Positions 2,675 to 32,477 of a stretch of DNA of 35,852 bases are shown in pieces. The first letter of the stretch is position 1. Each line of letters begins with the position of its first letter. The position numbers were made by a program, and so were the translations under genes. A model generated the notes under the pieces. That model saw nothing but the letters and a program-made list of their open reading frames with translations. It was not told the origin of the DNA and did not search any database. The stretch covers positions 1 through 35,852 of IMG/VR virus record IMGVR_UViG_3300011335_000507. One strand, 5' to 3'. Origin of the DNA: a virus (taxonomy: Duplodnaviria > Caudoviricetes).

Positions 2675-2869
2675 GAAGGGAATTTCCCATTCCCACAAGG
2701 CGCAGCCACCTGGCTCATTCGCAAATTCTGGTGGTGGCGCTTCGCTAAATTTAACGCAAATTCCCTCTTTGCTGTAATGGTCGCAAGTGTGGCACACCCT
2801 TGGAGGCTCGGCTCTGAGGGTATTTCGGTATAGAGTTACGATCTCGGGTTCTGGGTGTCTCATGTCCAT
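2672..2869 (-). CDS. Small Cys-rich (putative metal-binding) protein downstream of helicase
   Basis: CHTCDHY-x5-C...C pattern; overlaps helicase 3' end. Confidence 0.75.
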   Translation of the reverse strand: MDMRHPEPEIVTLYRNTLRAEPPRVCHTCDHYSKEGICVKFSEAPPPEFANEPGGCALWEWEIPF

Positions 2870-5274
2870 GTCCTTTTTAGTACGGTGAAAAATTTACCCT
2901 CGCGCCTGAATTCAATGGCGCTCGGTGGCTGGCCTTCGGTTAGTGCTTGCGCCATCTCATGCAGTTCTGCGGTGCCATAGTCCAGCACCACGCCTGCCTT
3001 ATAAGCTATGTCGGCCAGCAATCGGCGGCTCTTTTCACCTGCATAGCCATCGTGGGTTACGGCCAGGTATTCGGTCACTGGTGGGTCACTCAGGCTACCG
3101 TAGTACGTTAACGATAGCATTTCTTTGCCACTGGCTCGGCTTATGTGCTTGCGCCATGTCCAGGTGCTTACCTCAAAGTCAACGCCCTCTACGCCCATGA
3201 TGTCTAAATTGTGCAGTCGCAGCATTGGGCGCTCGGGTTCGGGGAATGGTTCACCGCAGGCTGGGCACTCCCTCACGCTCAAGTGGCATATCTCTTGGCA
3301 GTGGTCGCAAACCTTAACTGGTGCCTCGCCCACTTTGTCGCCCTTCTTTGGTGGTGGGATTACGGCGGTAATCGGCCCATGCTGCTCCACCACGCCAGCA
3401 AAGTCCAGCACTAAGCAATCGGTTTTGCCTTCGGCTATGCGTAATCCTCGCCCTGCCATCTGGACGTAAAGCCCTGGGGACATAGTTGGGCGCAGCATGG
3501 CTATCAGATCAATGCCTGGCGCGTCAAAGCCGGTGGTCAGTACATTGGCGTTAGTTAGTGCCTGAATGCGCCCTGCCTTGAATTCTTTGAGCATCCGGTC
3601 ACGCTCGGCGCTTGGTGTCTCGCCGGTCACGCAATCAGCCACAATGCCCTCATCTTGCAGCGCTTCTTTAATATGCTGAGCATGGGCCACGCCAGCGCAG
3701 AAAATCAGCCATGATTTACGTTCATGCCCCAAGCGCACAATTTCGGCCACTACCTTTCGGTTCTTGTCGGTGGTATCTACCGCTGCCTGTAATTCGGCCT
3801 CGATGTACTCGCCGCCACGCTTATGCACACCATCCACTTCCAGTTTGGTGCGCGTGATCTTGCTTCGCAGGGTTGATAGATAGCCTTTGAAAATCAATTC
3901 CTCTATGCTTACTGGCTCGATCAGCGCGTCAAAGATGGCTGGCTTGTCGGTGATGTAACCATGCCCTAGCCGGTACGGTGTGGCCGTCAGTCCTATCACC
4001 CTAACATTTGCGTTTGTCTGATAGATGTCTGATAGCAGTGTCCGATAGCCGCCCTCGTCCTTGTGTCCAATAAGGTGGCAATTATGTGCAGCTATTCCAT
4101 TAGCGAAGTAAGAAGGATGTCCACTGACTTGAAGGTTGAATACAAGTACAGGGCTTTCTCGTTTGATACGCGATACACGCGCCACCCGAGGCCCGCAAGA
4201 TATTGGTCTTTCTTCCTGTCCTGCATTTTCCTCTCGTCGCTGCCATGACTTCCCCCATCCAATTCGATGCAAATCATCTTTTTTGGATAGCAGATGTCCA
4301 CCTTGTAGGCATTCGGATATGTCCCGTTCAAATGTCCCGCTTTGGTCTTGATTGCATATTCTGCTATCCATCCTTCCCCCAACGCATGAAGTAGTGCTAA
4401 TTGTGGCAAAGGCAGCAATTGCCCGTTTCCTCCACGCTGAATAGGTTGATGCCTGATTCTTTTTAGAGTTTCCCGCATTCGTTTGCGTGCTTCTGCATTC
4501 AGAACCGTCGGGTGTGATTTCTTTGCACACTTCACGGAGCAATAATTCTGCTTTTCCCAAAATGGTTCCGACATTGCTGAAATTACTTTTCCGCTGTCGT
4601 CCTTTTTGATCCAAGGTCTGAACTCTGCTCCACAAGCGGGACATATCTTCAATGCGGAAAAGAGGCGTTCCGATCTCCAATTTTTCTGCTTTTTGCCATC
4701 CATCGTCGGTAAAAATTGGGTGATTGCCGGTGCATTCAAATTTGGTTCCATCATCAAGCTCCACAAATAAAGTTTCTAAAACACTACGGCAGCTAACGGC
4801 CTCTACCGTGCCAACTCCGCGTGTATTAAATACTAAGTCACCGCACCTCACTTTGTCAATGTCTATTTGTCCTTTCGGTGTTGAAATTTTGGTTCCAGCA
4901 ACAAAGCATTCATCTATGATTACCAGGTCGCAATGGCCGATCTGTTTGGCCTTGGAGCGCACTGATTGAATTCCTGCGAAGGTTATTGGCTCACCGAGTT
5001 CCTTGCGGCCAAGCCCAGCAGAATAGATGCCAAGCGGGCAGTTAGGCCAGTGCTGGCGCATCTTTTCGGCGTTCTGGACAATCAATTCCTTGACATGGGT
5101 TAGCATAAGAATGCGAGTTTCCGGCCATGTTTGCAGCGCGTCCTTGCACAGCGCCGCAATGATGTGACTCTTTCCTGACCCAGTAGGCAGCACCAGGCAT
5201 GGGTTGCCCGTATTGCCTGCCTCAAACCATGCGTAGAGTTGGTCAATGGTGCGCTGTTGGTATTCCCTCAACAT
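2860..5274 (-). CDS. SF2 DExH helicase (SSL2/RadD-like, C-terminal Zn finger), intein-containing; 528 aa after splicing
   Basis: LREYQ Q-motif, PTGSGKS Walker A, VIIDE|CH motif II split by intein, LTATP motif III, LTTGFDAP, QMAGRGLR motif VI, CDHC...CPAC. Confidence 0.95.
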   Translation of the reverse strand: MLREYQQRTIDQLYAWFEAGNTGNPCLVLPTGSGKSHIIAALCKDALQTWPETRILMLTHVKELIVQNAEKMRQHWPNCPLGIYSAGLGRKELGEPITFAGIQSVRSKAKQIGHCDLVIIDECFVAGTKISTPKGQIDIDKVRCGDLVFNTRGVGTVEAVSCRSVLETLFVELDDGTKFECTGNHPIFTDDGWQKAEKLEIGTPLFRIEDMSRLWSRVQTLDQKGRQRKSNFSNVGTILGKAELLLREVCKEITPDGSECRSTQTNAGNSKKNQASTYSAWRKRAIAAFATISTTSCVGGRMDSRICNQDQSGTFERDISECLQGGHLLSKKDDLHRIGWGKSWQRREENAGQEERPISCGPRVARVSRIKRESPVLVFNLQVSGHPSYFANGIAAHNCHLIGHKDEGGYRTLLSDIYQTNANVRVIGLTATPYRLGHGYITDKPAIFDALIEPVSIEELIFKGYLSTLRSKITRTKLEVDGVHKRGGEYIEAELQAAVDTTDKNRKVVAEIVRLGHERKSWLIFCAGVAHAQHIKEALQDEGIVADCVTGETPSAERDRMLKEFKAGRIQALTNANVLTTGFDAPGIDLIAMLRPTMSPGLYVQMAGRGLRIAEGKTDCLVLDFAGVVEQHGPITAVIPPPKKGDKVGEAPVKVCDHCQEICHLSVRECPACGEPFPEPERPMLRLHNLDIMGVEGVDFEVSTWTWRKHISRASGKEMLSLTYYGSLSDPPVTEYLAVTHDGYAGEKSRRLLADIAYKAGVVLDYGTAELHEMAQALTEGQPPSAIEFRREGKFFTVLKRTWT
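4081..4908 (-). mobile_element. Intein (276 aa, helicase residues 123-398)
   Basis: Starts CFVAGTKI (block A), CTGNHPIF (block B TxxH), VFNLQVSGHPSYFANGIAAHN (blocks F/G), +1 residue Cys; excision restores DECH. Confidence 0.95.
4092..4751 (-). CDS. Nested +1-frame endonuclease: Zn-binding N-terminus + Vsr/DUF559-type catalytic domain (start 4754/4751 or 4703)
   Basis: CPACG...YCSVKC; YKVDICYPKKMICIELDGGSH...QDRKKDQYLAGLGWRVYRVSN; GGAG 7 nt before ATG 4751; TAG at 4094-4092, wholly inside the intein. Confidence 0.85.
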   Translation of the reverse strand: MEPNLNAPAITQFLPTMDGKKQKNWRSERLFSALKICPACGAEFRPWIKKDDSGKVISAMSEPFWEKQNYCSVKCAKKSHPTVLNAEARKRMRETLKRIRHQPIQRGGNGQLLPLPQLALLHALGEGWIAEYAIKTKAGHLNGTYPNAYKVDICYPKKMICIELDGGSHGSDERKMQDRKKDQYLAGLGWRVYRVSNEKALYLYSTFKSVDILLTSLME

Positions 5275-31802: not shown

Positions 31803-32477
31803 TTAAACCTCGTATTGGTTGCTCTTGCGCATGTTGTCAATTGCAGGGATGACACGCAAGTTGCCAGGAACATGAAGGCCACTGACAAACTCGCCTTGTA
31901 GCGGGATTATATGGTCAACGTGCCAAGACTGGTCACTTTCCCTGTTTCGCATTGCTGCCAATTGGTACAAGCACTTGATCTTAAGTAGGTCAAACTCTGT
32001 CAGCCAGGCTGGAGTGCGCTTGAGTTTTGCAGCGCGGCGATTTGCGCAGTCAGCTAACACTAAGCCAAGGTTGTTTTTTCGCCAAAGCCGTTTAACTTCT
32101 CTGCGCTCAATAAGTCTGGCAGCGCGGACAGCCGCAATCCGGTCTTTGTTGGCTTTTTCGTATTCTTTTCTATACGCGGCTACCTTGTCTTTGTGTTTTA
32201 TGTTGGAATCTCGGCAAACGTTAGCCCTGCTTTTGGGATTTTCTTTTCTTTTGGCCGTATATTCCGCCCTAGTCATAAAACCTTTTCGCTCTCTTTTTCT
32301 GGCGTGCTCGGCTTTTCTAGAATCAGGGTTTGCAACGCGGTTTGCTTTGGCTTTTTCGTATTGGCAGACTTTGCAAAAATTTAAATGGCCGTCCGTCATT
32401 TGCTTATGCTTGTGAAACAGCGATAGCAGCTTGACCTGAGCGCAGCCTTTGCAAGTTTTGGTCGGCTCAATGGTCAT
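31803..32477 (-). CDS. Free-standing HNH endonuclease
   Basis: CKGC...CKVC; HVDHIIPL...GLHVPGNL...N.RKSN. Confidence 0.9.
   Translation of the reverse strand: MTIEPTKTCKGCAQVKLLSLFHKHKQMTDGHLNFCKVCQYEKAKANRVANPDSRKAEHARKRERKGFMTRAEYTAKRKENPKSRANVCRDSNIKHKDKVAAYRKEYEKANKDRIAAVRAARLIERREVKRLWRKNNLGLVLADCANRRAAKLKRTPAWLTEFDLLKIKCLYQLAAMRNRESDQSWHVDHIIPLQGEFVSGLHVPGNLRVIPAIDNMRKSNQYEV

Follow-up and report, generated by a model that had tools for sequence, protein, structure and literature searches.

A phage helicase intein with a predicted Vsr-like homing endonuclease gene nested in its +1 reading frame

An intein in the helicase gene overlaps a second open reading frame

We analysed a 35,852-nucleotide stretch of DNA from a virus of the Caudoviricetes (IMG/VR record IMGVR_UViG_3300011335_000507), referred to here at its full length as the window. 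Its minus strand carries a RadD/YejH-like superfamily-2 (SF2) helicase gene that is split by an intein, and a second gene, predicted to encode a homing endonuclease, is nested in the +1 frame of that intein (Table 1). The minus strand from 4908 to 4081 is stop-free in the helicase frame, and the plus strand has many stops in all three frames. The nested open reading frame (ORF) is open from 4775 through a TAG at 4094-4092; its gene has its start in intein codon 53 and its stop 11 nt short of the intein end, and the +2 frame of the region has many stops.

Class 1 inteins have an N-terminal Cys or Ser nucleophile, a TxxH in block B, a C-terminal His-Asn and a Cys, Ser or Thr at the +1 position. 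The window intein has all of these, namely Cys1, T60-G-N-H63 in block B and H275-N276 followed by Cys+1, and the TxxH of block B was kept in 116 of 117 complete relatives. Hint similarity was detected at both intein ends, with PT-HINT scoring 28.8 (cut-off 27.7) and TIGR01443 scoring 19.2 (cut-off 15.6); TIGR01445 matched at 19.3, under its cut-off of 24.5. Class 3 inteins have a non-nucleophilic N-terminus and a Cys at position 4 of block F (the WCT triplet), and this class was ruled out, as the N-terminal residue is Cys and block F reads VFNLQV. A canonical full intein with an in-frame endonuclease between blocks B and F was also rejected: the host-frame linker (4644-4162) matched no Pfam family at E <= 10, and its ratio of nonsynonymous to synonymous substitution rates (dN/dS) is 1.2-1.9. 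What was found is the layout of a non-canonical, out-of-frame intein, with a separate endonuclease ORF overlapping an intein frame that is still open. A single-sequence AlphaFold model of the intein (predicted local distance difference test score, pLDDT, 35) was uninformative and was not used.

The original prediction, made from the DNA alone, had proposed a 276-aa intein in the DE/CH motif of a helicase, a stop-free in-frame middle with no recognisable domain, and a Vsr/DUF559 signature with a zinc motif in the +1 frame. All three hold, on the minus strand, which it had not specified, with a nested product of 219 aa that scores above the curated DUF559 cut-off. The insertion junction that it quoted (...ATA GAT GAA/TGC CAC CTT...) agrees with the sequence.

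Table 1. Features of the helicase locus in the window
Feature	Position	Strand	Basis
RadD/YejH-like superfamily-2 phage helicase gene	2860..5274	-	ORF; Pfam ResIII and Helicase_C
N-extein, 122 aa, Walker A PTGSGKS, last residues DE of motif II	4909..5274	-	
Class-1-type intein, 276 aa, splitting helicase DE/CH of motif II	4081..4908	-	PT-HINT and TIGR01443 above cut-off
C-extein, 406 aa, CH of motif II as first residues; carries helicase motifs and, at the C-terminus, a Cys-rich ribbon	2860..4080	-	
Nested +1-frame gene, 219 aa, predicted homing endonuclease (Cys4 module and Vsr/DUF559 nuclease)	4092..4751	-	
CxxC...CxxxC module, nested residues 37-75	4527..4643	-	all four Cys in 99/99 relatives
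Vsr-like nuclease fold, nested residues 107-219	4095..4433	-	AlphaFold model, structural matches, conservation
First dual-constrained stretch, intein 54-88 (block B) over nuclease 2-35	4645..4749	-	dN/dS
Host-frame linker, intein 89-248, stop-free, no detectable amino-acid constraint	4165..4644	-	dN/dS
Second dual-constrained stretch, intein 249-271 (block F) over the last two helices of the nuclease	4096..4164	-	
Shine-Dalgarno GGAG of the nested gene, formed by intein codons 49-50 (GTG GAG)	4759..4762	-	
Putative sigma70-type promoter, intein codons 17-28	4825..4860	-	family enrichment

The nested protein resembles Vsr-like nucleases

The motifs CPAC, YCSVKC, YKVD, IELDGGSH and DRKKDQYLAGLGWRVYRVSN lie in the nested ORF. 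It matched Pfam DUF559 (PF04480) with 32 bits, against a curated gathering cut-off of 20.6, and 66 of 66 aligned members matched the same family at E <= 0.05. D152, E163, H169, D178 and K181 were invariant in all 99 full-length loci, and the EDxHD catalytic set (metal-binding Asp, extra Glu, His general base and following Asp) is present. The Cys4 module is likely a zinc-binding DNA-recognition part; zf-FCS matched weakly in 9 of 66 members and NUMOD in none of the 66 at E <= 0.05, and Atlas neighbours of the nested protein include clusters bearing NUMOD3.

An AlphaFold model of the nested protein, built with 66 sequences in the alignment, had a pLDDT of 83 and placed its predicted C-terminal helices at residues 197-206 and 210-218. 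Modelled residues 107-219 gave Z scores of 9.3 to 3hrl, 8.6 to I-Bth0305I (3r3p) and 8.0-8.4 to Vsr, and mitoribosomal RAP-type chains reached similar values. The top Foldseek row was 3r3p (E 4.9e-3), which superposed with a root-mean-square deviation of 3.4 over 88 aligned residues. phmmer and hmmsearch against PDB sequences gave weak matches only (3hrl, E 0.006-0.02; 3r3p, E 0.07). We conclude that the nested nuclease is a DUF559 member that is EDxHD-like without being a textbook EDxHD member.

Selection acts on different frames in different parts of the overlap

dN/dS was estimated by the Nei-Gojobori method from 20 disjoint pairs (72-98.5% identity) drawn from the 99 full-length loci. Over nuclease residues 36-100 the nuclease-frame value was 0.19 and the host-frame value 1.21, the host frame being that of the helicase and intein; over residues 101-195 the two values were 0.14 and 1.93. 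Because nuclease dS in these segments (0.73 and 0.62) equals that of the non-overlapped intein start (0.65), the linker residues above them are without detectable constraint. At intein 54-88 dN/dS was 0.26 in the host frame and 0.60 in the nuclease frame; at intein 249-271 the values were 0.43 and 0.56, with dS down to 0.11-0.13. From this dual constraint and the collapse of dS at 249-271 it follows that the last two helices of the nuclease overwrite intein block F.

The absence of stops was evaluated against a null in which the nuclease protein was fixed and its synonymous codons were redrawn. In the window, 12.3 host-frame stops were expected and none is present (P(none) = 8.5e-8). Across 92 representatives, in which the start was mis-set for 8, about 970 host-frame stops were expected and none was found, with a median of 13 in the third frame. 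In the middle of the overlap, selection acts on the nuclease protein, and the intein frame is merely kept free of stops.

The original prediction had argued for selection on both frames from the improbability of an accidental open frame of about 165 codons. The arithmetic is correct ((61/64)^165 = 3.6e-4), and the claim stands at the two ends of the overlap (intein ~54-88 and ~249-271); it fails in the middle, where only stops are avoided. The purifying selection that it expected in the +1 frame is there (0.14-0.19), and the compensating indels that it named as a possible refutation were absent inside the intein among contigs from 8 runs of several studies, a sample that rare variants would escape.

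Start signals of the nested gene are conserved within intein codons

GGAG lies 7 nt before the second ATG (4751) of the nested ORF, which is likely the start of the gene. In 84 of 92 representatives an ATG occupies one host-frame alignment column, where its A and T close a D/N/H codon and its G opens the following one; the D/N/H codon ends in T in 84 of 88 cases, compared with about 48% in these genes. Eight loci of the full set of 108 have no ATG at the column, two of them being one-column misalignments and six later-starting distant members. A Shine-Dalgarno-like word was found 4-14 nt upstream of the start in 68 of 83 loci, compared with 22.9 ± 3.5 after synonymous resampling; the ATG count in this resampling is not independent, because its 83 loci were selected for having the start. 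RNA structure around the Shine-Dalgarno sequence was no more stable than in shuffles (z 0.25-0.85), leaving a sequestering hairpin unsupported.

Further upstream, the window has a TTGACA-18-TAGTAT site at 4859-4830. This lone site means little, because the window scan found 2 sites with 1.6 expected by chance. Across the family, sigma70-like sites occur in codons 17-28 of 30 of 83 loci, compared with 11.1 ± 2.6 in codon-resampled controls (intein-derived codons), and synonymous changes in these codons are halved (38/212 versus 189/536 elsewhere). This pattern leads us to lean slightly towards an internal promoter in codons 17-28, a grade held down because the region was chosen after a first look.

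The out-of-frame layout recurs across a large family

The nested ORF had 106 relatives in a protein search, most of 213-228 aa. DNA searches gave 173 loci, 135 of them distinct by nuclease DNA with the window included, and in 132 of the 135 the nuclease lies inside a same-strand ORF, always in the +1 frame. The N-junction was DE/C in 119 of these 132 loci, most of the others being truncated by contig ends and one reading DECM, and the +1 residue after the intein was Cys in 128 of 129. A second search round, with distant members and GenBank phages, gave 85 loci including 58 new distinct ones (50 nested +1, 7 split and 1 free-standing). The total is 193 distinct loci, of which 182 are nested +1, 8 split, 3 free-standing and none +2; 182 of 193 is not a prevalence figure, because every DNA scan took the best 80 matches to an out-of-frame query and near-copies were counted. 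Five cultured phages carry the element (Pseudomonas MR14, Corynebacterium phi673 and three Vibrio phages), with only the helicase annotated.

Variants of the site were seen among L272, L275, L290, L316, L320, L312, L329 and L080; they include two-intein helicases (the second one upstream, near Walker A), DEAH/C insertions and one Ser+1 (DE/SS). One locus, L164 (453-1226), is a decayed copy whose host frame opens only downstream of a stop that lies within the element.

The element has moved between diverged helicase alleles

Nuclease DNA of the window is 93-98% identical to that of L002-L005, compared with only 67-81% for C-extein DNA; against L003 the values are 97.7% and 67%. Three RNA-library runs likewise contained inteins 96-99% identical within diverged flanks. 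Near-identical elements in diverged helicases are the signature of homing, and this element has spread horizontally. In an extein tree of 28 hand-picked rows, from which the 10 residues on either side of the site had been cut, the approximately unbiased (AU) test rejected monophyly of the five carriers of near-identical inteins (p = 1e-60; cost 387 log-likelihood units). The nearest exteins to the window are intein-free alleles (93% at the amino-acid level). Among the 80 closest helicase loci, 69 are empty at the site, 4 have the intein and 7 are unclassified, and one lake run yielded a contig with the intein alongside another that skips exactly 828 nt.

Of the 69 empty alleles, 60 read DEAH (38 if only the 45 distinct ones are counted), and such alleles are unable to splice this intein. 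When L004 was compared with its DEAH sister L195, and L169 with its DEAH sister L249, the downstream differences fell almost only in the first 12-14 nt, a patch that includes the Ala-to-Cys codon. Co-conversion of the first ~12-14 downstream bases therefore probably supplies the Cys codon in DEAH recipients, to judge from these two pairs. A pseudo-palindromic target beside the insertion site, of the kind that homodimeric EDxHD endonucleases cleave, was kept only as a lead, a weak hint: in 2 of 6 arm/gap settings the 13-mer spanning the insertion site came 2nd and 4th among 260 positions, and DECH alleles are poorly symmetric at the insertion site (2.3 of 5).

Within the intein, positions 4777-4810 of the window (intein nt 99-132), just upstream of the Shine-Dalgarno sequence, show 16-18 differences from L002/L003 in 34 nt and match L004; outside this patch the window intein is closer to L002/L003. 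The patch is the result of recombination between intein alleles.

The same nuclease occurs free-standing, in split inteins and in frame

Free-standing copies of the nuclease (L076, L079 and L317) lie directly upstream of intein-free SF2 helicases. The helicase of L317 (3048-4575) switches frame right at the DExH motif, through either assembly error or damage at the predicted target.

Eight fractured loci in an SF2 helicase (L077, 2043-4529; L255, L256, L258-L260, L262 and L264) carry a split intein, inserted three residues further on at a DEAHS/C or DEHHR/C type of site. Their N-half is 88-89 aa long and their C-half ~57 aa where the ATG was checked; the two halves are in one frame, with 15-35 stops in the former linker. 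The nuclease lies between or overlaps the halves, still in +1 and with the same N-lobe ATG.

A search of longer proteins gave 13 further relatives (profile match E 7.5e-41), 11 UvrD-family and 2 SNF2-type. The former (P0116-P0125 and P0128) are UvrD/Rep helicases with a 296-327-aa intein at the equivalent DE/CQD site and a DUF559/Vsr-like nuclease in frame, which is without the Cys4 module; this form was confirmed at the DNA level in six viral loci (L340-L345), and no relic open -1 frame was found in the in-frame UvrD inteins (1-22 stops). In the SNF2-type pair (P0126 and P0127) a multi-Cys nuclease stands at the start of the C-half and is joined in frame to the C-lobe of the intein. The split group and the in-frame group each fall on one side of a well-supported branch (98-100). 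Neither the nuclease-core trees nor a concatenated tree of lobes and core (48 of 87 rows usable, only 2 of them split) settled the backbone or the order of overprinted, split and in-frame forms; in-frame and split forms as one side were not rejected (AU p 0.59).

A two-frame mobile intein and its alternatives

Taken together, the locus is very probably a two-frame mobile intein. Its helicase frame would encode a self-splicing intein with an unconstrained, stop-free linker, and a separate protein read from the +1 frame, a predicted Vsr-like homing endonuclease, would spread the element by cutting helicase alleles that have no intein. That splicing and homing reside in separate polypeptides from one DNA, as first proposed for this locus, is supported by purifying selection on the nested frame and by movement between helicase alleles. 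Helicase mRNA would be translated through the open intein frame, and the Hint lobes, given their class-1 residues Cys1, Asn276 and Cys+1, would splice the product and restore the DECH Walker-B motif. Ribosomes would also initiate at the internal GGAG-N7-ATG (intein codons 49-54), a signal conserved beyond codon chance, on a transcript that may start from the putative promoter in codons 17-28. The Cys4 module and a basic helix would then likely bind an intein-free allele in a co-infecting phage, at motif II or close to it. There the Vsr-type domain, which has the fold and catalytic residues described above, would cleave or nick as in I-Bth0305I, and repair off the intein-bearing copy would transfer the 828 bp with short flanks, in line with the observed spread. 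A single indel cannot bring the nuclease in frame without losing the splicing C-terminus, because its start signals come from the N-lobe and its last helices from block F.

Several points weigh against this reading. Splicing, translation of the nested ORF and cleavage are each deduced from sequence, and the RNA-library data are contigs, which inform neither transcription nor the start site. The promoter-like site is missing in ~60% of relatives and its region was picked after the first scan. The fold match is only moderate, with the Foldseek E value of 4.9e-3 and Z scores tied with 3hrl and RAP domains, and the nested protein reads ELDGGSH where 3r3p has EVNGVYW, the aromatic pair being missing. 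Unsampled DECH sisters could explain both co-conversion pairs instead. Phage genes are mosaic, so that short flank patches can arise without homing. L125 (2501-3154) has a TAA at nuclease codon 55 and is a decayed copy, and four database proteins (P0006, P0041, P0054 and P0076) have a nuclease that is joined to the N-half and stops short of the splice junction.

These N-extein-intein-nuclease fusions, together with a nested ORF that is on the same strand and begins within the N-lobe, are what might be seen if the nuclease were made by +1 ribosomal frameshifting or by re-initiation from the helicase frame, as a fusion to N-extein and N-lobe. Such a route would need neither ATG nor Shine-Dalgarno sequence, yet both are conserved beyond codon chance at one position; split-intein relatives retain the same ATG though their host frame stops soon after, and the fused records change frame at differing points, as errors or dead alleles would. 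We regard it as highly improbable. It is also unlikely, if a little less so, that the nested protein is real and serves as a Vsr-like nickase or marker-exclusion nuclease while ordinary phage recombination spreads the intein. Several facts would suit a non-homing role: Vsr proteins nick DNA in repair, I-Bth0305I is described in the accessible text of PMC3239194 as mostly nicking at non-cognate sites, the helicase genes are mosaic and the flank-symmetry test is weak. The high identity is nevertheless limited to the element and drops at its edges in many independent pairs, and motif-II targeting fits the position of all three free-standing relatives directly upstream of intein-free SF2 helicases, as well as that of the in-frame relatives at the equivalent DE/C site of UvrD helicases.

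An assembly artefact, or a decayed intein whose formerly in-frame nuclease was shifted by indels and whose open frames arose by chance, is hardly credible, even though standard annotation gives only a domain-less linker and in-frame relatives exist in UvrD inteins. It is refuted by the same +1 layout in 182 distinct loci, five cultured phage genomes among them, by frame-specific selection (nuclease-frame dN/dS 0.14; P(no host stop) 8.5e-8) and by the indel-free contigs of 8 runs.

Beyond the two-frame mobile intein itself, we tentatively suggest a wider reading, to which we give somewhat less than even weight: one Walker-B-targeting nuclease lineage may be preserved in every stage of domestication, namely free-standing beside its target, overprinted on a contiguous intein, split, fused to a C-half and fully in frame. 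The overprinted form would be the dominant and stable one, spreading into DEAH alleles by means of its own +1 Cys codon, and locked in because promoter, ribosome-binding site, start codon and last helices lie in the splicing domain. If so, one stop in the unconstrained linker would be an easy route to natural split inteins. Models of endonuclease acquisition and split-intein origin have rested on few observed intermediates (Dassa 2009; Gosselin 2025). To these the present family adds ~180 loci of the overprinted kind, 8 split and 3 free-standing ones, and no fewer than 11 in-frame loci or proteins, with the same nuclease throughout, and the cultured phages that carry the element make the domestication steps testable. 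The family is also a clean natural example in which two folded proteins share codons at each end of an overlap, and a pool of uncharacterised Vsr-type nucleases, predicted to be site-specific, and of natural split inteins. Domain-less or 'degenerate' phage inteins can hide nuclease genes that GenBank annotation has missed.

Comparison with known systems

Out-of-frame intein nucleases have already been described in preprints of 2025-26, and the window element belongs to that class. In non-canonical actinobacteriophage inteins (Gosselin, Arsenault and Gogarten, bioRxiv 10.1101/2025.01.02.630785) the endonuclease is a separate overlapping ORF; the accessible text of that preprint calls these layouts rare (63 of 784 non-canonical, in-frame HNH included) and predicts that an indel could put such ORFs in frame. 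The contiguous intein, the overlapping ORF, the Vsr-like/EDxHD-like nuclease type and the ongoing horizontal spread are shared. In the same text, however, the Vsr-like nucleases are antisense and the same-strand case is an endonuclease VII in frame 3, whereas here a Vsr-like nuclease is on the same strand in +1; the hosts there are DNA polymerase, minor capsid, terminase and thymidylate synthase genes, and here a helicase gene. The cyanobacterial dnaX intein (Phillips, DeSimone and Gogarten, bioRxiv 10.64898/2026.09.14.751524) has a same-strand, out-of-frame LAGLIDADG nuclease with a putative Shine-Dalgarno sequence, a low nuclease-frame dN/dS and a raised intein-frame dN/dS, as here, and is also inserted beside a Walker B motif (PMC4760082, accessible text). 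It differs in nuclease type, in its cellular host gene and in that no free-standing ancestor was found, in contrast to the free-standing, split and in-frame relatives of the present element.

Among Vsr-like nucleases, I-Bth0305I and the EDxHD group (accessible text of PMC3239194 and PMC3384342) share with the nested protein a C-terminal Vsr-like domain and an N-terminal putative DNA-binding part. The spacing of D152, H169 and D178 (17 and 9) is that of I-Bth0305I D196, H213 and D222 (PMC3239194), which together with the alignment suggests that these residues are equivalent. I-Bth0305I, on the other hand, is encoded in a group I intron and has NUMOD repeats and aromatics before the His, where the nested protein has a Cys4 module, GGSH and DUF559; Vsr and the family of Dassa et al. 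keep an aromatic pair before the catalytic His (Vsr Phe67/Trp68-type) that the nested protein lacks. Our eight split relatives, in which the nuclease overlaps both intein halves, resemble the fractured genes with Vsr-like nucleases of Dassa et al. 2009 (PMC2677866). The window intein, by contrast, is contiguous, and a contiguous out-of-frame state is absent from the steps in the model section and figure legend of that paper.

As described in the accessible text of PMC10643990, empty alleles of the haloarchaeal MCM-d intein site are mostly without the +1 nucleophile (Pro there, Ala here) and invasion requires co-conversion of the +1 codon; the MCM-d nuclease is in frame in a cellular replicative helicase, and here it is out of frame in a phage helicase. 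The ShiLan insertion in a phage methylase (PMC11855218, accessible text) likewise hides an out-of-frame endonuclease within a stop-free in-frame insertion; its nuclease is of the HNH type, and it is without a splicing domain. No helicase intein with a sense-strand Vsr-like nuclease was found in the literature searched, outside which lie preprint supplements that might list cases. On this helicase-intein family or on DUF559 inteins, the same literature (most subscription journals outside it) gave no paper beyond one mention (PMC9403480), and for an in-frame DUF559/Vsr-like nuclease in UvrD inteins it gave no description. Added here are occurrences of the same nuclease as a free-standing gene, within split inteins and as an in-frame part of UvrD inteins, together with a likely internal promoter and a likely DEAH-to-DECH allele conversion by the intein.

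Genome context

CheckV completeness of the 35,852-base virus record is 99%, and the window also encodes terminase and N4-gp56-like capsid genes. The sequencing runs with this stretch are mostly river, lake and sea metagenomes. The helicase sits in a minus-strand replication/recombination cluster with DUF669, AAA_24, a Cas4-like exonuclease and VRR-NUC. Its precursor is 804 aa long and would be 528 aa after the predicted splicing; the closest models are RadD/YejH (NCBIfam heli_RadD_YejH, 6e-88, under the model cut-off), and it also matches the phrog_16 DNA helicase.

Elsewhere in the window, a free-standing 224-aa endonuclease gene (31803-32477, minus strand) is wedged in after the terminase large subunit gene, with another large head gene on its other side. 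Its product matches phrog_1035 endonuclease VII (E 1.5e-24) with an HNH-like C-terminus, and this gene is likely a second homing endonuclease of this genome.

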